Assembly: GCA_004356735.1 (NCBI GenBank)
Contig: SMWR01000088.1
Span: forward strand, 1 to 43,441
Source: Deltaproteobacteria bacterium
GTDB taxonomy: Bacteria > Myxococcota_A > UBA9160 > SMWR01
Direction: 5' to 3'
Length of the DNA stretch: 43,441 bases
The notes beneath the pieces were generated by a model that saw nothing but the letters and a program-made list of their open reading frames with translations, was not told where the DNA came from and made no database searches. This document shows, one piece after another, positions 3,899 to 25,010 of the stretch. Position 1 is the first letter of the stretch. Each line of letters opens with the position of its first letter. Position numbers and translations under genes: made by a program.

Positions 3899-5089
3899 CT
3901 AGATCCATACCATCAGATCTTCGATTCCCACGACGAAGTTGGCCGGCCGCAATGAAGGGGCCTCTTGGCTTGCAAGCTCGATCTGGGGTATGCGGGTCAT
4001 GAGTTCTTCGAACATGACACGCAGCTCGAGACGGGCCAACGAGCTGCCCAGGCAAAAGTGGCTGCCGTTCCCGCCAAACGCGACATGGGCGTTTGGGCTT
4101 CGTTCGATATCGAATTCGGAAGCGCGCTCGAAGACTTGCTCATCGCGGTTCGCCGCCCCGTATAGCATCAAGACCCGGTCTCCCTCACGGAGTCGTATTC
4201 CTCGCAGCTCGGTGTCTTGCTTGACGGTGCGCATCAGGTTTTGGAGTGGAGTCACCCATCGCAGCATCTCCTCGACGGCGGTGGGGATTTTCGACGGATC
4301 CTCAACCAGCCTGCGATGCTGCGCCGGGTGAAGCAGAAGCTGATGCATGCCACCGCTGATGACATGCCGAGTCGTCTCATCACCACCAATCAGGATCAGC
4401 AGCGACTCCATCAAGATGGATTGATCGTCGAGACGCTGTCCGCCGACTTCGGCGTGCACGAGAATGCTCATCAAATCTTCAGCAAGCGGCTTCGATCTGC
4501 GATCGGCGACCACTGCAGCGTTGTACTGAGCCCATTCCGCGGCGGCGCTGACCTGGCGCTGAAGGAGCACCGGATCGTCGCTGCCGAGTGCGCACATGAT
4601 ATCATCGGACCAGCGCAACAGCCGGTCGTGGTCCTCTGCTTTCACGCCAAGCAAGTCTGCAATCACGCTCATCGGCAGCGGTGCGGCGACCTCGCGAACG
4701 AAGTCGAATGCCTGCTTCCCGCCATACTTCTGCGCGACGTTTTCGATGATCTGGATACAAATCTCACGTATGCGCGGCTCGAGTCTGGAAACCTGCCGGG
4801 GCGTAAAGCCTCGACTGACCAGGCCTCGCCGAATCATATGCTCCGGCCGATCCATACAGGCCATCATCGGCATCGGTGGAGAATCGGGTCGAAAGCCCAT
4901 ATGACTGCCATAGACGTCGGGATTCTTCGAGATCATCGTGATGTCTTCGTGCCGGGACACTGCGTATAGATCGTTCTTCGCATCGTAGTAGACGGGCGCA
5001 TGCTTACGCAGCCATGCATACGAGCGCTGAACATCGTTGGCGTAGAATTCGCCACGCACGAGATCAATGGCGGGGGGGGACTGGGGCAT
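3899..5089 (-). CDS. cytochrome P450
   Basis: Heme loop FGGNGSHFCLGSSLAR, ExxR motif (EEMLRW) and I-helix GGDETT. The start is either ATG 5089 (MPQSPP..) or 5131. Confidence 0.9.
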   Translation of the reverse strand: MPQSPPAIDLVRGEFYANDVQRSYAWLRKHAPVYYDAKNDLYAVSRHEDITMISKNPDVYGSHMGFRPDSPPMPMMACMDRPEHMIRRGLVSRGFTPRQVSRLEPRIREICIQIIENVAQKYGGKQAFDFVREVAAPLPMSVIADLLGVKAEDHDRLLRWSDDIMCALGSDDPVLLQRQVSAAAEWAQYNAAVVADRRSKPLAEDLMSILVHAEVGGQRLDDQSILMESLLILIGGDETTRHVISGGMHQLLLHPAQHRRLVEDPSKIPTAVEEMLRWVTPLQNLMRTVKQDTELRGIRLREGDRVLMLYGAANRDEQVFERASEFDIERSPNAHVAFGGNGSHFCLGSSLARLELRVMFEELMTRIPQIELASQEAPSLRPANFVVGIEDLMVWI

Positions 5090-17345: not shown

Positions 17346-17485
17346 CGGGGCGATGAAAAGCGGGCGTTGCCGAACCTTCACAACCGAAAACTCGTGTGGC
17401 AGCCCCAAAAAAATGAAACACGTCAGCGCCACGCCGCCAGAAAGCCCAACGGACCTCCCAGCAGCGCGCCGCTGGCGCGATGCAA

Positions 17486-17508: not shown

Positions 17509-17727
17509 CTAGCTCACGGCGAGCTTGGCCCTGGCGGCTTCGATATCGCCGTCCATCACGGTCTTGCGCTTGTTGGCCTCGGCCGAGGCCTGGGCCTCAC
17601 GCGCGAGTGCTGCCACGTAGCCCTCAGTTGCCGCGACGGCCAGGCTCAGCGCAGAGCCAGAGACGCGCAAGCCGCCTCCGTGCTTGGTCAAGAGTCGCTT
17701 CACGACCGCATTCGGAAGGTCTGCCAT
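17509..17727 (-). CDS. bacterial histone-fold protein (archaeal-histone/NFYB-like singlet)
   Basis: 72 aa with an alpha1-L1-alpha2-L2-alpha3 layout: PNAVVKRLLTKHGG / LRVSGSA / LSLAVAATEGYVAALAREAQASAEANKRKTV / MDGDIEAARAKL. The RKTVM..DI block matches the histone L2/alpha3 signature. GGAGG lies 5 nt before the ATG. Confidence 0.75.
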   Translation of the reverse strand: MADLPNAVVKRLLTKHGGGLRVSGSALSLAVAATEGYVAALAREAQASAEANKRKTVMDGDIEAARAKLAVS

Positions 17728-17853: not shown

Positions 17854-18711
17854 TCACGCGGACAAGAATTCGACCGCCTCCCGCGCGAACTCGGGGCCGT
17901 CGTAGTCCACGGGAACCACATGGGCCGAGTTCTCGAGAATCCGATGTTTCCGCCGCTCGGACCGAACGGCATCGAAAATCTCCTTTGAATCCGAGGGGTC
18001 GGCGGTCCGATCGTGGGCCCCGTGGGCCACCAGGATGGGCGTCTCGATCCGACCGAGTGCGCGCCGCACGACGTTCTGGAAGTGGATGAGCTGGTGCACG
18101 GCCGCCAACGGCATCACCTCGTAGCTGGGGTGACGAGCGCGGGCCGCCGGATCCCGGATGTCCGAGCCGGTTGCCTTGCGGGGAAAAGGCAGCAGGTATT
18201 TCAGGACCGGAATCAGCAGCGGCAATGGCTGACGCAGGCGCAGTGGTGTCCCCACCACCACCGCCCCATCCACGGCAGCCTCCGCGGACAGGGCCAGCGC
18301 GACCAACCCGCCCATGGAGAGTCCCGCGACGAACACCCTGTCGTGCTGCTTGCGCAGCCGCTCCACAGCGTCCCGGGCCGCTCCCAGCCACTCCGTATAT
18401 TTCACACGCGCCAGCGCCTGGGGCGTCTCGTTGTGGCCCGGCAGCGCTGGGCCAAACGCCCGGTAGCCGGCTTGTGCGAAGGCCTCACCGAGTGAGCGCA
18501 TCTCGTAGGGCGTCCCCGAGAGACCATGAAGACACAATATTGCGTCTCTCCCGGATCCCGGAAAGTCGAACGGCGCCGGATCGACCCGGACTTCAGTCGA
18601 GGTCACGTCCGGCTTCTTCGGCGGCTTGGACCACCTTGCGCAAGGGAACCTGCTTGCTTCGCGCGAGTCGCTTGCAGTCATCGTATTCGGGCGAGACCGA
18701 AACGCGCCCAT
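17854..18711 (-). CDS. alpha/beta hydrolase (carboxylesterase/lysophospholipase-like)
   Basis: LCLHGLSG oxyanion region and GLSMGG nucleophile elbow. The annotated ATG at 18711 would overlap larC by 119 nt, so a GTG at 18606 (14-nt overlap) is a plausible true start. Confidence 0.8.
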   Translation of the reverse strand: MGAFRSRPNTMTASDSREASRFPCARWSKPPKKPDVTSTEVRVDPAPFDFPGSGRDAILCLHGLSGTPYEMRSLGEAFAQAGYRAFGPALPGHNETPQALARVKYTEWLGAARDAVERLRKQHDRVFVAGLSMGGLVALALSAEAAVDGAVVVGTPLRLRQPLPLLIPVLKYLLPFPRKATGSDIRDPAARARHPSYEVMPLAAVHQLIHFQNVVRRALGRIETPILVAHGAHDRTADPSDSKEIFDAVRSERRKHRILENSAHVVPVDYDGPEFAREAVEFLSA

Positions 18712-19837
18712 CGAGATCGAACACGCGCTTCACGCGAACGCGACCGTACGTCGTGTCGACCCTCCGGACTTCGCGTTTCAGGATGATGCGGTCGCTCTCG
18801 GTGACGCGCACGCCGATGGCGGTCGATTCCGCGAACAGGATGCGTGCCAGCGAGATCCGATCCGACGGATGGCCCAGGACGCGCACCAGGTGACCCGGGC
18901 GATTCTTCTTCATCTGCAGGGGTTGGACCGATACGTCGAGGGCGCCGACCTCGAAGAGGCGCTCCATCAGATAGTCGAAGTGCTCGGGCACGAGATCGTC
19001 CAGGTTCGTCTCGAGCACCACGATCCGGTCCGAGCCAGCTCCGACACTGCGCCCCAACACCGCACGCAGCACGTTCGGCATGGGTCCCGGCCGATCGTTT
19101 CCGGCACCCAGACCGATCGACTCGATGGTGAGCGCGGGCAACGGACCGTAGTCTTCGACGATCGTCTTGAGGATCGCGGCCCCGGTGGGCGTCACGGTCT
19201 CCCAGTTGACGTGGGCGGGCACGGTCGGAACCCCGCGCAGCAGCTCGAGGGTCGCCGGCGCCGGCAAGGGCAGTCGGCCGTGCTCTGTCTCGACGCTTCC
19301 TTCGCCCAGGGCCACTGGCGATGAGGTCACCCGGTCGATCTCGAGACGGGCCAGCCCGATGGCGGCCCCGGTCACGTCGACGATGGCGTCGACCGCCCCC
19401 ACCTCGTGGAAGTGCACCTCGTCGACCGGCTTGCCGTGGACCCTCGCCTCGGCTCGGGCCAGGGCCTCGAAAATGGCGATCGCGCGCTCACGAACGCCGC
19501 CGTCGAGGCGGGCACGCTCGAGGATCTTCACGATCGCGCCGAAGGACCTGCCGTGGTGGGGATGCCCGTGGGAATGTTTCCGAGCCGCCGACTTCTGCTT
19601 CGGTCGCGCCCTGGGGACGCCGACGTCGACGTAACGGGCGGCCAGCGCGCCGCGCTTCACCTTCCGCACCTTGAGGCTGAATTCCAGATCGAGTCCGGCC
19701 AGATCGCCTTCGAGCTCCTTTCGCTTGAGACCCAGGTCGAGCAGTGCGCCCAGAAACATGTTTCCGGCGATTCCCGAGAAACAATCCAGGTGCAGGGTTC
19801 TGACGCCCGATCTCTCCACACGCCGGGACGCGCCCAT
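18593..19837 (-). CDS. larC: nickel-pincer cofactor biosynthesis protein LarC (nickel insertion), single fused ORF
   Basis: LHLDCFSGIAGNMFLGALLDLG opening and a His-rich HSHGHPHHG loop (DUF111 family). The start is ATG 19837, or 19888 with a 29-nt overlap of larB. Confidence 0.9.
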   Translation of the reverse strand: MGASRRVERSGVRTLHLDCFSGIAGNMFLGALLDLGLKRKELEGDLAGLDLEFSLKVRKVKRGALAARYVDVGVPRARPKQKSAARKHSHGHPHHGRSFGAIVKILERARLDGGVRERAIAIFEALARAEARVHGKPVDEVHFHEVGAVDAIVDVTGAAIGLARLEIDRVTSSPVALGEGSVETEHGRLPLPAPATLELLRGVPTVPAHVNWETVTPTGAAILKTIVEDYGPLPALTIESIGLGAGNDRPGPMPNVLRAVLGRSVGAGSDRIVVLETNLDDLVPEHFDYLMERLFEVGALDVSVQPLQMKKNRPGHLVRVLGHPSDRISLARILFAESTAIGVRVTESDRIILKREVRRVDTTYGRVRVKRVFDLDGRVSVSPEYDDCKRLARSKQVPLRKVVQAAEEAGRDLD

Positions 19838-19859
19838 CCGACCCGTGCGACGCACGGGA

Positions 19860-20609
19860 CTAGAGTCGGTTGATAAGCGTCGCGACATAGGCGGCCCCGA
19901 AACCGTTGTCGATGTTCACCACAGTTACGTTGGAGGCACAGCTCGTCAGCATGCCCAGCAGGGCCGCGACACCGCCGAACGCGGCCCCGTAACCCACGCT
20001 GGTCGGAACGGCGATGACGGGCTTGTCCACCAGACCTCCGACCACCGATGGCAGGGCGCCTTCCATGCCGGCCACCGCGATCAGGACCCGCGCACTCCGC
20101 AGCACGTCACTCGACGCCAGCAACCGGTGCAGACCGGCAACACCCACGTCCGTCAGGACCTCGACCTTGTTTCCGAAGCGGCGAGCGACGCCTGCGGCTT
20201 CACTCGCCACAGGCAGATCCGAGGTCCCGGCACAGATGATGGCGATGGTGCCCTTGCCGAGCAGGGGCGGCTCGGCCGGTCCGTACCAGAGCAGGCGCGA
20301 CTTCTCGTCGTAATCACCGGCGCCCACCCGTTCGGCGACATGCCCTGCCACGTCGGACTCGACCCTCGTCGCCAGCACGTCCTGACCCGCATCGCGAATC
20401 GCCCGGACGATGTCGGCGATCTGATCCGGCGTCTTGCCCGGCGCGTAGATCACTTCTGGCAAACCCGCTCGCAGGGCTCGGTGGGTATCCACCCGGGCGC
20501 CGGGAACGTCCACGAACGGCAGACGCGCAATTCTCTCCAGTGCGTCATCGAGGGACACGTCACCCTGCTGCACGCCCTCGAGAAGCCGTCGCACCCGTTC
20601 GCGGTCCAT
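19860..20609 (-). CDS. larB: nickel-pincer cofactor biosynthesis protein LarB (AIR-carboxylase-like)
   Basis: N-terminal ..DVSLDDALERIARLPFVD..ARVDTHRALRAGLPEVIYAPGKT.. followed by a PurE-like C-terminal half (IAIICAGTSDLPVA). Confidence 0.9.
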   Translation of the reverse strand: MDRERVRRLLEGVQQGDVSLDDALERIARLPFVDVPGARVDTHRALRAGLPEVIYAPGKTPDQIADIVRAIRDAGQDVLATRVESDVAGHVAERVGAGDYDEKSRLLWYGPAEPPLLGKGTIAIICAGTSDLPVASEAAGVARRFGNKVEVLTDVGVAGLHRLLASSDVLRSARVLIAVAGMEGALPSVVGGLVDKPVIAVPTSVGYGAAFGGVAALLGMLTSCASNVTVVNIDNGFGAAYVATLINRL

Positions 20610-20630: not shown

Positions 20631-21170
20631 TCAGATCACGTCCGGGGCGATCACCAGGAGTGCGCGGCGCGCACCGTTGGGCTCGCAGAGATCGATCTCA
20701 CTGGCGATGCCGGCGCTTCCCTTGCGACGTTCGAAGAGCAGACTCCCGAACGCATCGTCCACTGAATCTCCAACCAGGATCGGGACCGAGATCGTAATGC
20801 GGTCACCGAGATGGTCGGCCACCGAGGACATCGCACGGGAGGCGACGATGTTGCCAACTTCGCGCAACACCGAGTGGGCCATGAGGCTGTTGGGATCAAC
20901 GCCCGGACACAGCAGGTCGATCACCGATTCGGCGCCCTTGGGTGGCAGGAACAGCGCAATCAGGCCCTGAACCGCACCCTCCATTTCGAAGATCACACCG
21001 GTTGCGCCCGCACCCATCTCTTCCACGGTAGCGGCGCGCACCCGCGGCTCGTGGGCGTGAAGATCGCTGCCCAGAATCGCCGAGATGGCCGAGGCCGCGC
21101 TGGCGGCGCTGATCTGCGCGATCTCGCGCATGCGGCCAAAAGCGGCGAAGAGCTCTTCGCTGGTCGTCAT
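20631..21170 (-). CDS. CheC-family CheY-P phosphatase (single intact active-site motif)
   Basis: Exact [D/S]-x3-E-x2-N-x22-P motif: SVLREVGN + 22 residues + P. The first-half motif is degenerate. An ATGA overlap links it to the cheA core stop. Confidence 0.7.
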   Translation of the reverse strand: MTTSEELFAAFGRMREIAQISAASAASAISAILGSDLHAHEPRVRAATVEEMGAGATGVIFEMEGAVQGLIALFLPPKGAESVIDLLCPGVDPNSLMAHSVLREVGNIVASRAMSSVADHLGDRITISVPILVGDSVDDAFGSLLFERRKGSAGIASEIDLCEPNGARRALLVIAPDVI

Positions 21171-22405
21171 GCCAGCTGATTCTGGTCGAGCACGAATACG
21201 GGCCGACCATCTCCCAGAATCGTGAGTCCGGCGAGCGCGCGAAGGGTCGAGAGCAGCTCCGGAACCGGCTTCACGTAGATCTGTTGCTGACCCGACACCC
21301 TGTCGGTCCGAAGGGCAATTCGCTCACCGCGAACGTCAGTGAGGATCAAGGTGACGACGCTGTCCCGCTCTCCGCCTACCGGTTCCTCAGATTCGTGTTC
21401 GCGGCCGTCGTCGAGCGCAAGCTGTGCGGCCAGATGGAGCACAGGAATCGGATCGTCATCGATCAGAACGAAGGACTCGTGGCCTGCCGTCTCGATCTGG
21501 TCGGAGTGGACTTCGAGGATGCGCTCAACCCGTGAGATCGGCAGCGCTACGGTCTCGTTCCCCAGGGCCAGCAGCAGAACGCGCTGGACCGCGGCCGTGA
21601 TCGGAACCGTCAACGTGGTGGTGGTGCCGCGCCCGGCCTCGGTAACGATCTCGACGCTGCCACCCAGCGACTCGATGGTTACCCGCACGGCGTCCATGCC
21701 GACACCGCGCCCGGAAATCGCGGAAACGGTCTCGACGGTCGAGAACCCGGGGAGGAAGACGAGGGCGACCAGTTCGTGGGGAGGCAGGTCCTCTGCGAGG
21801 TCCGGATGGAGCAGGCCCTTCTCGACCGCGCGGGAGCGCACCGCGTCGAGGTCCATACCGCGACCGTCGTCTCGCACCGAGATCTGGATCGAGTCCTTTA
21901 CGCGGCGGGCCTCGATGTCCAGACGTCCGATTTCCGGCTTGCCAGCTTCGAGCCGAGCCTCGGGGGTCTCGATGCCGTGATCGACGGCGTTTCGGATCAG
22001 GTGGACCAGGGGATCGCTGAGACGGTCGAGAATCGAGCGGTCCAGCTCGAGCTCGCCGCCCTCGATGTGGACCTGCACCCGCTTGCCGCTGAGTTGGGCG
22101 ATGTCTCGCGCCATGCGCGGCAGAAGCTCGACGATGCGGAGCAGGGGTGTCGTCCGCAGGTCGAGGGCACGCAGCTGGAGTTCGCCGACGACCCGATCCA
22201 TGCGGTCGAGGCCCGTGCCCAGATCAGCGTTGCGCTCGGGCCCGTCGCCAGCAGCCGCGGTTCGGACTTGGCTGGTGTTGAGGATCACTTCGCCCACGGT
22301 ACTGAGGAAGCGGTCCAGCATTTCGGTCTTGACGCGAACCGTCGGCGGCGGCTGCGGTGGGACCACCGTCTTGACGGGCGGCGGGGCGGGCGCGGGGCCC
22401 TTCAT
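21167..22405 (-). CDS. cheA: chemotaxis histidine kinase CheA, core part (P3 dimerisation, P4 HATPase, P5 CheW-like); lacks P1 and P2
   Basis: Pro-rich linker, then LDRFLSTVGEV. N box HLIRNAVDHGIE, G1 VRDDGRGMD, G2 GRGVGMDAV, and a CheW-like C-terminus. It lies in the +1 frame relative to the upstream Hpt ORF. Confidence 0.9.
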   Translation of the reverse strand: MKGPAPAPPPVKTVVPPQPPPTVRVKTEMLDRFLSTVGEVILNTSQVRTAAAGDGPERNADLGTGLDRMDRVVGELQLRALDLRTTPLLRIVELLPRMARDIAQLSGKRVQVHIEGGELELDRSILDRLSDPLVHLIRNAVDHGIETPEARLEAGKPEIGRLDIEARRVKDSIQISVRDDGRGMDLDAVRSRAVEKGLLHPDLAEDLPPHELVALVFLPGFSTVETVSAISGRGVGMDAVRVTIESLGGSVEIVTEAGRGTTTTLTVPITAAVQRVLLLALGNETVALPISRVERILEVHSDQIETAGHESFVLIDDDPIPVLHLAAQLALDDGREHESEEPVGGERDSVVTLILTDVRGERIALRTDRVSGQQQIYVKPVPELLSTLRALAGLTILGDGRPVFVLDQNQLA

Positions 22406-22438
22406 CGCAGCGAGTCCTACATCGTCATCGGAGGAGGC

Positions 22439-22477
22439 CGCCGCTACTCGAGTAGCGGCGTCACGACTTTTTTTTTT
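22439..22477 (-). promoter_or_regulatory. A10 homopolymer + 6-nt spacer + perfect 22-nt palindrome at the Hpt/kinase junction of cheA (slippage or recoding candidate)
   Basis: mRNA sense reads CAA AAA AAA AAG UCG UGA followed by CGCCGCUACUCGAGUAGCGGCG. The A10 tract is 22468-22477 and the palindrome is 22439-22460. Confidence 0.6.
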
Positions 22478-22871
22478 GGCACTCCGCGGGAGCGATGGGC
22501 GTAGCCAGTGCGTTGACGAGGTCGGGGTTGGGCGGTGGAGACTCGCCAGTCTGCCGCACGACCTCGATCATTGCCTCGAGCCCTTCCATGCCCTTGAACA
22601 CGAGTGTCAAACCCTCTGTACCGTCCACACCACCGGCACTCCGGATCTCCTGCATCCGATCCTCGAGAACGTGGGACACTTCGGCGATCGAGTCGTATTC
22701 CAGAGACGCCGCCATCCCCTTGATGGAATGGGCCATCCGGAACAGCACGTCGATCGCATCGGCGTGCTCGGTGTCCTTCTCGAGATCGAGAAGCGCCCGG
22801 CTCATGTCCGCGAGGTGCTCGGTGGCATCCTCGAGGAAGACCGCGCGGTACTTGGTCATGTCGAGGGCCAA
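22461..22871 (-). CDS. cheA: CheA P1 (Hpt) domain ORF, terminated just after an A10 tract
   Basis: Hpt signature ..DVLFRMAHSIKGMAASL.. The TTG start abuts the cheY stop; an alternative ATG is at 22859. The ORF ends ..ECQKKKS*. Confidence 0.85.
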   Translation of the reverse strand: MALDMTKYRAVFLEDATEHLADMSRALLDLEKDTEHADAIDVLFRMAHSIKGMAASLEYDSIAEVSHVLEDRMQEIRSAGGVDGTEGLTLVFKGMEGLEAMIEVVRQTGESPPPNPDLVNALATPIAPAECQKKKS

Positions 22872-23243
22872 CTACTGGCTCTCCTTTTCCAGCACCTTGT
22901 TCACCGTCTTGACGACGGAGTCGGGCTTGAAGGGCTTCACGATGAAGTCCCGCGCCCCTGCCTGAAGCGCTTCGGTCACGAGTGTTTCCTGACCGAGTGC
23001 GCTGCACATCACGACGCAGGCAGTGGAGTCGATCTCCAGAATGCCCTTCACCGCATCGATGCCCGACCTTCGCGGCATCACGATGTCCATCGTGACCAGG
23101 TCCGGATGGTGAGCCTTGAACTGATCGACAGCCTCGACGCCATCCGATGCCTCGGCAACGACCTCATGCCCTTCCGCCTCGACGATCTCACGGATCATCT
23201 GACGCATGAAGGCGGCATCATCTGCAACCAGAATTCGCGCCAT
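22872..23243 (-). CDS. cheY: CheY-like single-domain response regulator
   Basis: MARILVADDAAFMR..DLVTMDIVMP..IVKPF carries the acidic pocket, the phospho-Asp and the conserved Lys. A GGGGGAG Shine-Dalgarno lies upstream. Confidence 0.9.
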   Translation of the reverse strand: MARILVADDAAFMRQMIREIVEAEGHEVVAEASDGVEAVDQFKAHHPDLVTMDIVMPRRSGIDAVKGILEIDSTACVVMCSALGQETLVTEALQAGARDFIVKPFKPDSVVKTVNKVLEKESQ

Positions 23244-23262: not shown

Positions 23263-23730
23263 TCATTCGTTTCGACCCAGTGAACTCTCAATCACTTCCT
23301 TCGCCCGGTCCACCAAACGGACCGGATCCAATACGAGCACCACGCGGTCGTCGATCGACCGCCGCTCCGCAACGGGATCCTCGTCCCGCGACATCGCACT
23401 CTCTCCATCGACGAGTCCCATGACCCGGTCTACGGGCAGTCCCAGCCGCGCGCCGCCCGTGATCGTCTCCGAGATCACCAACACTTGGGTCGGCTCGCCC
23501 AACTTCGCCGCCTCCACGTTCAACAGCACATTGGGCCGCAGCACCGGCAGAGCATCTCCGTGATGGTTCATCACCCCGGCGATCTCGGTCGGCAGGGTCG
23601 GGATACAGGCCAGTGGCTCCACCTCGCTGACCTCGACGATGCAGGCGATGGGAATCGCATAGATCGAGTCGGCCAGCTCGAACGTGAGGAGGCGCTGCTG
23701 AATGTCGGGTGCAGAGAAGACACCGGTCAC
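23263..23730 (-). CDS. cheW: CheW coupling protein
   Basis: ..[36 protein letters not shown].. is a CheW-like domain. Confidence 0.9.
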
Positions 23731-25010
23731 GACTGGGGCTCTTTCGCGACGGAGCTTCCGGTCTCGAAGCGCCTCAGGATCTCCTGAAGCTGCTCGGCCA
23801 GCTCCGTCAGTGTCGTCGACGAGCTCACCATCTCCGACATGGAAATGAGTTGACGCTGGGAGGTGGCCACGACGCCGTCGATGGAAATGGAGTTGCTCTC
23901 AGCACCCTTGGCGACCTCGTCCATGGCACTCACCATGCGCTCGACACCCTGGGTCTGGCTATCGGCGCCATGGAAGATCTCCTCGGCACGGTTCGAAGCC
24001 TCACCCACGGCCTGACGAATGTTCTCCAGCGTGTGCGCGATCGTATCGACGTCCTCACGGCCCTCACGCATCCCCAGGCTCGACTCGCGCATCTCGTCGG
24101 CGACATCGTGTGTGTCGACCTGAATCTCGTTGATGAGCTTCGAGATCTCCTCGGCGCTTTCGCCCGAGTTCTCGGCCAGTTTGCGAATTTCGTCGGCCAC
24201 CACCGAGAAGCCACGACCGGCCTCGCCGGCGCGGGCGGCCTCGATCGAAGCGTTCAACGAAAGGAGATTCGTTCGATGCGCGATGCTGGTGATGATCGAA
24301 GAAATCTGGTTTACGTGGCGCGTCTTCTCCTCGAGCTCAAAGACCTTGGCCACCGCATGCTCTACCCGCTCGAAGACGGTGCGCATCTTCTCGATGGCAA
24401 GCCGCGCGATATCGACGCCCGAGTTCGCCTTCTGATTCGCCTCGGCGGCAAAGCCGAAAGCCTCGCGAGCATGGTCGGCATTGCGTTCGATGGTCGAGGC
24501 GATCTCGTGGATCAGTCGCGCCGCTTCGTTGAGCTGACTCTGCTGTTGGCTCACGTTTTCGGCGAGGTTGGCCACGGTAGAGGAGATCTCACCGTTGTTG
24601 GTGCTGACGTGCTCGGCGGAGCGGGTCAATTCATGGGCGGCGTGGGAAACGCGGTTGGCCGTCGACTGCACGTGTTCGACCAGGTTCCGCAAGCTGCCGG
24701 CCATGCCCTGAAGGCTGTGGGCCAGCGCATCGGTCTCATCCGGGAAGTGCGGGGTCTCATCTGCGACGACCTGGACGGTGAGGTCCCCGCGACTCATCTG
24801 ATCGCTGGCCCTGTGCAGTTGTTGGAACGTCTTCGAGAGGTCCCGCGACAGCAGCCATCCCAGGCCGGCGCCGAAGCCGAGCGCCACAAGACTCGAGAGA
24901 GACCAGTGCACGGCGAGTCCGCCGGCCTCAATGAGGGCCGGCACGATCTGAGCCGACAAACCGACCAGCACCGCCCCGAAAACAAACTTGTACTTCAGCG
25001 AAACTCGCAC
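23727..25010 (-). CDS. methyl-accepting chemotaxis protein with a membrane hairpin and HAMP domain but no periplasmic sensor domain
   Basis: Two TM helices are separated by about 8 residues, followed by HAMP. The conserved hairpin tip [33 protein letters not shown] is present. Confidence 0.9.

Follow-up and report, generated by a model that had tools for sequence, protein, structure and literature searches.

A candidate site of programmed recoding between P1 and P3 of a P2-less cheA from the Myxococcota

The junction between the two halves of cheA

The gene for the chemotaxis kinase CheA is split into two open reading frames (ORFs) on the minus strand of contig SMWR01000088.1 of a Deltaproteobacteria bacterium (GCA_004356735.1; Myxococcota_A); the whole stretch of 43,441 nt is referred to here as the window. 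The ORFs belong to a che operon with the order mcp, cheW, cheY, Hpt ORF, P3-P4-P5 core ORF, and cheC/X. The Hpt ORF represents P1, and the core ORF has the Pfam domains H-kinase_dim, HATPase_c, and CheW, which makes the domain order of a P2-less CheA complete over the two ORFs. They are in different frames, and the linker between P1 and P3 contains a run of ten A's. The junction comprises the following features:

22461..22871, minus strand: 136-aa Hpt (CheA P1) ORF in the 0 frame (Pfam Hpt, E = 2.2e-15)
22482..22485, minus strand: Shine-Dalgarno-like GGAG, 4 nt ahead of the run and 8 nt ahead of the last in-phase A_AAA_AAG (sequence)
22468..22477, minus strand: A10 slippery run (T10 on the plus strand), the proposed recoding site (sequence)
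22461..22463, minus strand: UGA stop of the Hpt (0) frame, 7 nt past the run (sequence)
22439..22460, minus strand: perfect 22-nt palindrome, a 9-bp GC-rich hairpin with a 4-nt loop (folding)
22444..22446, minus strand: UAG stop of the third (-1) frame, within the hairpin, 24 nt past the run (translation)
22406..22567, minus strand: kinase (+1) frame, uninterrupted across the run and the 55-nt gap (..AKKKSRDAATRVAAASSDDDVGLAA-MKGP..; translation)
22415..22418, minus strand: weak Shine-Dalgarno-like AGGA, 9 nt ahead of the core ATG at 22403-22405 (sequence)
21167..22405, minus strand: CheA core ORF with P3 dimerization, P4 HATPase_c, and P5 CheW-like domains, 412 aa from the ATG (Pfam)

In mRNA sense, the junction reads ..GAG UGC CAA AAA AAA AAG UCG UGA and continues directly into the palindrome CGCCGCUACUCGAGUAGCGGCG, which begins 6 nt past the AAG, immediately behind the UGA stop, and has a predicted fold of about -17.5 kcal/mol. 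The A_AAA_AAG heptamer is in phase with the 0 frame (CAA AAA AAA AAG). The junction sequence, the run, the stop, the palindrome, the GGAG, the core ORF, and its ATG with the AGGA all lie where the original prediction, which was made from the letters alone, had placed them. Its claim that ten A's in a row are exceptional in such GC-rich DNA also holds, as no other T/A run in the 43.4 kb of the window (65.6% GC) exceeds a length of 7, and the next-longest T run has a length of 5. The next-longest homopolymers of the window are G8 at 5072-5079 and A7 at 17407-17413, both on the plus strand. AAA accounts for 12.7% of the Lys codons and CAA for 13.7% of the Gln codons in the genes of the window, and the codon-usage probability of encoding QKKK as CAA-AAA-AAA-AAG is about 0.002.

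By translation, the A10 message ends 7 nt past the run and yields a free 136-aa Hpt (P1) protein. The kinase frame, which is +1 relative to Hpt, is uninterrupted from 22567 across the tract, and in silico a message with A9 or A12 encodes a P1-P3-P4-P5 protein of 567 or 568 aa, respectively, as had been predicted. A message with A11 or A8 encodes Hpt with a short VVTPLLE tail (..QKKKVVTPLLE) that is closed by the UAG at 22444-22446; this stop lies inside the hairpin as claimed, but follows seven sense codons and not nine. The open kinase frame across the gap was excluded as evidence, because an open stretch of 18 codons is expected in about 60% of cases at such GC content (author's estimate).

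The fused protein as a query retrieves six cluster representatives of 94-100% identity from JGI, Logan, NCBI, and ENA, all of them 412 aa long and representing the same split, while every match at 68% identity or less is a fused CheA of 503-575 aa from Myxococcota metagenome-assembled genomes (MAGs). The 567-aa read-through product of an A9 message aligns with fused homologs of 534-574 aa over 100% coverage and is viable in form, a CheA of normal length like the homologs of 503-575 aa.

Stability and conservation of the run

Contigs of the window lineage were fetched via the core protein, which renders the sample independent of tract length; the tract-spanning assemblies were from NCBI, JGI, ENA, and Logan, and all of the data are metagenome assemblies. 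A10 is present in 20 of the 21 independent tract-spanning assemblies, despite substitutions in the flanks, and an identical copy of the 136-aa Hpt protein is recorded from independent assemblies. The sole exception (L004; ERZ26783238) is an ENA SPAdes contig of 3.2x coverage with A9, which encodes a 567-aa fused CheA (P0131). None of ten predicted A8, A9, A11, and A12 products of the common haplotypes was found by exact look-up among 15 billion proteins, so there is no sign of common DNA variants or assembled slipped transcripts. The DNA tract is fixed at A10 at the consensus level. An exact DNA pattern search of the GTDB species genomes gave no match; the window species lies outside this collection, in which the closest Hpt is 68% identical.

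With the Hpt ORF as the query, 160 related loci of 44-95% Hpt identity were obtained from metagenome contigs and GTDB species genomes; their organism titles, where given, are mostly Myxococcota or "Deltaproteobacteria" MAGs. The 163 loci analyzed, which comprise the related loci plus L001, L002, L004, and the window, include 92 split and 20 fused genes and 51 loci without a kinase motif in the fetched DNA. An A7-A11 run is present in the P1-P3 linker of all 92 split loci, and the split with an out-of-frame run occurs also in chromosome-scale assemblies such as OZ245002.1. In the junction zone (300 nt) of 162 loci, there are 141 runs of at least 7 A's, compared to a single A/T run of at least 7 in the remaining 580 kb (69% GC) of the same loci, which amounts to an enrichment of about 1700-fold.

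In the kinase frame, the run is nearly always decoded as ..AAA AAA AGN (KKS or KKR, followed by P/L, with E/S thereafter). The phase in which the Hpt frame decodes it differs among lineages, and where the run is missing from a fused relative, the linker has no Lys run either. The conserved object is therefore the nucleotide run and not the peptide, and the run, which runs counter to a strong codon preference for AAG and CAG, is under selection as a nucleotide sequence. Because of the differing phases and the fused relatives without Lys runs, a requirement for poly-Lys was ruled out as the reason for its maintenance.

Several loci (L091, L093, L111, L115, L120, L128, L136, and L157) are from MAGs titled Spirochaetales, Opitutales, Planctomycetota, or Gammaproteobacteria; such titles for Myxococcota-type che loci probably reflect taxonomic mislabeling or mis-binning rather than horizontal transfer. 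Near-identical contigs that are one A apart (A10 and A9) are represented by L055 and L056, by L061/L075 within the L052-L102 clade, and by L004 and the window; in the former two cases, the one-A change swaps two out-of-frame states and does not restore the frame. Such differences may be either tolerated real polymorphism or homopolymer errors. The Logan contig L003 (SRR30892879; positions 1-30) starts just past the palindrome, 28 nt ahead of the core ATG. This may reflect a break of the assembly graph at the palindrome or the run, possibly because of heterogeneous reads.

A sequencing or assembly error in an ordinary fused cheA, which the original prediction had offered as the trivial explanation, would be in line with the error-prone nature of homopolymers and with the normal CheA that A9 would restore. 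It is nevertheless rejected, given that the same A10 recurs in 20 assemblies across projects and assemblers and that out-of-frame runs are conserved in 92 loci and homologous runs in about 140. A phase-variable contingency locus, in which replication slippage heritably toggles cheA between the split and the fused state, would account for the fused 567-aa gene of the A9 contig L004, for the near-identical contigs of other clades that differ in tract length (A10 in L055 and A9 in L056; A9 in L061/L075 inside an A10 clade), and for the contig break just past the palindrome. Phase variation is nonetheless very unlikely, because 20 of 21 consensus sequences have A10, the A9 contig is covered only 3.2x, the ten variant products are all missing from the 15 billion proteins, and tract length is stable within deep clades, unlike in classic contingency loci; frequent tract-length polymorphism among close strains is not observed at the consensus level.

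The run is associated with different frames of the kinase. The loci for which both the Hpt and the kinase frame could be assigned are distributed as follows:

A7, kinase frame -1: 21 loci
A8, kinase frame -1: 9 loci
A9, kinase frame -1: 13 loci
A10, kinase frame -1: 31 loci
A11, kinase frame -1: 1 locus
A7, kinase frame +1: 7 loci
A9, kinase frame +1: 5 loci
A10, kinase frame +1: 5 loci (four of the window clade, including the window, plus L007)
A10, kinase in frame: 11 loci
A9, kinase in frame: 1 locus (L004)

Loci with short runs (A7-8) possess a strong hairpin that starts 2-9 nt downstream, with a mean best folding free energy (dG) of -20 to -22.5 kcal/mol, compared to -12.7 +/- 3.9 in the background, and 63-86% of them fall under the 5th percentile of the background. 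A GGAG or GAGG is located 4-18 nt upstream in 60-100% of these loci but in only 15.5% of the background. The stop in the Hpt frame follows at a median of 6 nt past the run, whereas the third frame stays open (median stop at 640 nt; closed within 45 nt in 3 of 37). In anatomy, such junctions correspond to directed ribosomal frameshifting of the dnaX or insertion sequence (IS) type, and 30 short-run relatives have the kinase in the -1 frame, as in the -1 design of dnaX.

By contrast, the loci with long runs (A9-11) show no excess of structure (mean dG of -13) and no excess of Shine-Dalgarno-like motifs (13%). The median stops are 21 nt past the run in the Hpt frame and 24 nt in the third frame, which is closed within 45 nt in 36 of 55 loci compared to 11% of the background. 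This pattern matches the description of slippage in Thermus dnaX, with nearby stops in both other frames (PMC5009743). When all run-bearing loci are pooled, the first stop in a non-kinase frame comes far earlier than in the background (P = 8e-42).

Eleven fused relatives contain an in-frame A10 and have a stop 7-17 nt past the run in one of the non-kinase frames. In eight of them (L023, L030, L031, L036, L072, L078, L088, and L107; the remaining three are L053, L111, and L142), this stop is located at 7 nt and supplied by a conserved ..CUGA/UUGA motif (in the -1 frame in L030). Slippage would yield free Hpt from the eleven genes, in the case of these eight from a transcript with one extra A, which would make them the mirror image of the split design.

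Decoding of the run in the window clade

On a neighbor-joining tree, the window clade adjoins "+1-frame" loci (A7G in L012, L015, L076, L101, and L117; A9 in L016; A10 in L007) and two A7 loci of the "-1" class. Ten A7G relatives (L009, L012, L013, L015, L018, L059, L076, L101, L117, and L125; e.g., L117 2898-2940) read GGAGGGCNNN CAA AAA AAG NNC UGA, followed by a 9-bp hairpin of the form GGCCGYCGC-NNNN-GCGRCGGCC. Each has a complete dnaX-like cassette, consisting of GGAGG, an in-phase A_AAA_AAG, a stop one codon on, and a hairpin of 9-13 bp, whose stem reaches within 2-3 nt of the AAG in L101 and L117. In the seven of the ten with an assignable kinase frame, the kinase is in the +1 frame and not in the -1 frame; the latter is open for 276 nt in L012. 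As judged from their frames, these loci would need either -2/+1 ribosomal shifting or slippage by -1/+2 nt on seven A's.

In an alignment of 14 sequences, the palindrome of the window occupies the same columns as the A7G hairpin. Across these sequences, 98.4% of the cells are paired, and compensatory double changes are present in five of the nine pairs; the covariation score was reached by none of 500 shuffles, and slid registers pair only 28-78% of the cells. The closing C-G pair is replaced by U.G in L002, L005, and L006, and the stem is kept. The original prediction had interpreted the hairpin as a pause element, but the hairpin is explained better as a conserved stimulator of the frameshift type inherited from the A7G relatives. 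It had also suggested comparing orthologous loci for joint conservation of run and palindrome: the run is conserved in 141 of 162 loci, and the hairpin is shared with the A7G relatives, but the A9-11 loci lack excess structure.

Compared to the A7G relatives, the run of the window clade is lengthened to A10. The third-frame stop at +24 nt is present in the window clade, where it is conserved in L002, but not in the relatives checked (L007, L012, and L016). The length of the run and the third-frame stop are both slippage-type traits. With an A10 and stops at +7 and +24 nt, the window agrees with the long-run loci, and it mixes both designs, as its long A10 run and early stops are combined with a hairpin that covaries with that of the A7G relatives. 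Typical features of slippage sites that are found in the window are a run of at least 9 A's, conservation beyond the amino-acid need, and stops in both other frames. The window shares with -1 frameshift cassettes an in-phase heptamer and a conserved hairpin after a 6-nt spacer, but is not a member of this class, because the kinase occupies the +1 frame and translation in -1 ends after seven codons. Thus, the analogy to dnaX that had been drawn originally stands for the anatomy but not for the outcome in the window, although many relatives do use exactly the -1 design of the dnaX type.

Together, this evidence makes it fairly probable that the A10 run serves as a site of programmed recoding between P1 and P3 of a P2-less cheA and acts mainly at the level of transcription; the feature itself is real, conserved, and very probably functional. 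RNA polymerase would slip on the 10-bp rA:dT hybrid and generate a mixture of tract lengths in each round of transcription, in which unslipped A10 mRNA would give rise to free Hpt as the main product and A9 or A12 mRNA to a minority of full-length CheA. The hairpin, presumably inherited from the A7G relatives, where it would serve as a frameshift stimulator, may add ribosomal -2/+1 slippage in the window or may be a relic. The core ATG may allow some P1-less core to be made, which would be able to phosphorylate free Hpt in trans. Among the readings proposed originally, a slippage switch that sets the ratio of Hpt to CheA is thus the best supported, with the exception of its heritable variant (one A9 contig of 3x coverage, none of ten products).

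It is less likely, though conceivable, that the shift is made mainly by the ribosome, with two tRNA-Lys slipping by -2 or one by +1 under stimulation by the hairpin and the GGAG. The compensatory changes in a hairpin at the spacing of a frameshift stimulator are in agreement with a ribosomal shift, as are the ten A7G relatives that combine GGAGG, A_AAA_AAG, and hairpin with a +1 kinase frame on only seven A's, which is short for efficient polymerase slippage; moreover, re-pairing after both -1 and -2 shifts would be perfect on at least seven A's. However, the growth of the run from 7 to 10 and the early third-frame stop in the window clade are hallmarks of slippage, and the GGAG has been lost in L002, L005, and L006. 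Frameshifting by -2 or +1 on A_AAA_AAG contributes little in the systems studied so far, and it would have to compete with a standard -1 shift, which yields only a dead-end product.

In a genuinely bipartite CheA, Hpt and core would always be separate proteins, with the core translated from its own ATG and phosphorylating Hpt in trans, and the run and the hairpin would be relics. The window has the architecture that defines bipartite CheA, in which an Hpt-only ORF is the neighbor of a P3-P4-P5 ORF within one che operon; the core ATG is preceded by AGGA 9 nt upstream, gene callers and NCBI annotate two separate genes at the locus, and Berry et al. 2023 (PMC10782961) interpreted separate Hpt genes beside CheA cores as bipartite. 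However, a functionless A10 should decay rapidly in a genome with 66% GC and a preference for AAG, whereas 20 of 21 assemblies and about 140 loci have kept it intact. The hairpin has compensatory changes, both non-kinase frames are closed early far more often than in the background, and among the translated "+1" relatives the core ATG is restricted to the window clade, the others having no ATG between the run and P3. A bipartite CheA is therefore improbable. Of the two-piece CheA considered in the original prediction, the free Hpt product and the core ATG may form part of the system, but it leaves the conserved run, the hairpin, and the early stops unexplained.

Other explanations were ruled out. 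Coupling of termination and reinitiation is contradicted by the "+1" class, which lacks a start codon at the stop, and an A-rich translation enhancer for the core by the position of the run, at least 55 nt from the ATG, and by the translated "+1" relatives without such an ATG. An Rfam scan of 22300-22620 with E values up to 10 returned only chance matches to eukaryotic miRNAs and snoRNAs and no known frameshift element. A scan of 22000-23000 for terminators and promoters found nothing; hence, the palindrome and the T10 on the plus strand are not terminator-like, and the T run is 7 nt from the stem.

Several points weigh against polymerase slippage as the mode of decoding. The slippage and both of its products are read from the sequence, and every data set derives from metagenome assemblies. 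With the kinase in the +1 frame, the commonest slippage product (one additional A) is unproductive, and full-length CheA requires the loss of one A or the gain of two, so its yield may be low and below that of the "-1" relatives. The core of this clade has its own ATG with a weak AGGA, and a system of two proteins alone would be workable on known principles, given that liberated P1 functions (work cited in PMC10782961). The GGAG is present in the window and L001 but gone in three haplotypes of the clade (L002, L005, and L006). Finally, the run-length classes are largely clade-coherent on the neighbor-joining tree, with several transitions, so that the counts do not represent independent events, and the statistics for short and long runs ignore shared ancestry.

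There is a slightly better than even chance that the whole Myxococcota clade carries an unrecognized recoding site at the P1-P3 linker of cheA, whose decoding mode switched repeatedly among four designs. These would be a -1 ribosomal frameshift (A7-8 with Shine-Dalgarno-like motif and hairpin); polymerase slippage (A9-11); an in-frame A10, from which slippage would produce a truncated Hpt; and the "+1-frame" design of the window, in which a dnaX-like cassette would deliver the +1 frame by -2/+1 frameshifting or by slippage of -1/+2 nt. With such a site, each lineage would have its own ratio of free Hpt to full-length kinase.

The che operon, known recoded genes, and significance

The remaining genes of the operon flank the two halves of cheA:

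23727..25010, minus strand: chemoreceptor (MCP), first gene of the che operon (ORF; partial L002 ortholog with a Pfam match to MCPsignal)
23263..23730, minus strand: cheW (Pfam CheW, E = 1.9e-19)
22872..23243, minus strand: cheY, response regulator, whose stop abuts the start of the Hpt ORF (Pfam Response_reg, E = 3.6e-29)
20631..21170, minus strand: cheC/cheX-type phosphatase, overlapping the stop of the core ORF (Pfam CheC, E = 1.8e-11)

The gene order around mcp is identical in L001 and L002, and the cheY orthologs in the loci of relatives are called as a gene of 123 aa. In public records, the core is named "chemotaxis protein CheW" and the Hpt ORF "hypothetical protein" or "Hpt domain-containing protein" (MCH7709499.1, MCH8133772.1, and TDJ19810.1); one Hpt ORF of 132 aa is named "sensor kinase CheA" by JGI. 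Directly behind cheC/X and on the same strand are AIRC (LarB-like) and Ni_insertion (LarC-like) genes (18593-20609, minus strand), an adjacency that is kept in the flanks of L001, L003, and L004. A few genes downstream of the che operon, an ORF of 72 aa (17509-17727, minus strand; L003 4707-4925) has histone-fold Pfam matches (CBFD_NFYB_HMF and Histone) and is a candidate for a bacterial histone-like protein.

Isoforms of CheA that differ in P1 are known from Escherichia coli, where a single cheA gene produces CheA-long and, via an internal start, CheA-short, which lacks most of P1. In the window, early termination would release P1 alone, and recoding would give rise to the whole protein. Recoding that frees the N-terminal domain of a multidomain protein is also known from copA, where a -1 frameshift releases this domain as a separate protein, CopA(Z). 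There, the frameshift makes the short product, whereas standard decoding would do so in the window, the relatives with in-frame A10 excepted.

Among the closest parallels is dnaX, where an A run allows one gene to make two products, one short and one long, at a set ratio. In Thermus thermophilus, slippage on a 9-nt run results in mixed mRNA, with nearby stops in both other frames yielding the short product, and homologous dnaX genes use either polymerase slippage on a long run or ribosomal frameshifting with heptamer, Shine-Dalgarno motif, and hairpin; slippage adds bases in diminishing proportion (Atkins 2016; PMC5009743). The same dichotomy exists among the cheA loci, and the GGAG, the A_AAA_AAG, the 6-nt spacer, and the hairpin of the window match the anatomy of the -1 cassette of E. 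coli dnaX. However, cheA is an unrelated gene, and its productive frame in the window is +1 and not -1. Moreover, the classic arrangement of dnaX is reversed in the window, where the unshifted product is the short one and a shift leads to the long one; a few dnaX genes with a reversed arrangement are mentioned in the same review (PMC5009743).

Fusion of out-of-frame ORFs via an A/T run is shared with orfA-orfB of IS3-family elements and IS1 (A6G/A7) and with mxiE and spa of Shigella (about 9 nt; PMC5009743). These are genes of mobile elements or virulence regulators, whereas cheA is a chromosomal core signaling kinase conserved across a clade, and the frame required in cheA varies among lineages. 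The bipartite CheA described by Berry et al. 2023 (PMC10782961) likewise has, within a che operon, an Hpt-only ORF immediately ahead of a P3-P4-P5 core ORF, but the ORFs of the window are joined by a conserved slippery run with signatures of recoding, so that a fused product would be expected in addition. The interpretation of separate Hpt genes in that study leaves recoding unconsidered; work cited in it indicates that liberated P1 is functional.

Recoding of cheA is not mentioned in the review by Atkins 2016, in Antonov 2013 (GeneTack survey), or in a frameshift survey of 2025, and full-text literature searches on CheA with slippage or frameshift returned nothing relevant and no published case of cheA recoding. 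The "+1 candidate" of FSscan in E. coli cheA is an unrelated site with a CGG hungry codon. The cheA gene would represent a new gene family that uses a known kind of mechanism, with the "+1-frame" subclass being unusual.

The split CheA ORFs of the Myxococcota clade are probably one recoded gene and not a bipartite kinase. If this is true, a central signaling kinase would join the short list of cellular, non-mobile recoded genes of bacteria, many CheA proteins annotated as "bipartite" would be recoded single genes, and split cheA loci would call for an annotation of the ribosomal_slippage type. The approximately 140 natural variants provide a rich comparative set for the question, familiar from dnaX, of how polymerase slippage and ribosomal frameshifting replace each other. 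Natural -2/+1 frameshifting in a chromosomal gene of bacteria would be unusual, and the "+1-frame" loci that possess a dnaX-like cassette are candidates for it. For the organisms themselves, recoding of cheA would mean a fixed or tunable ratio of a diffusible phosphotransfer domain to an array-bound kinase.

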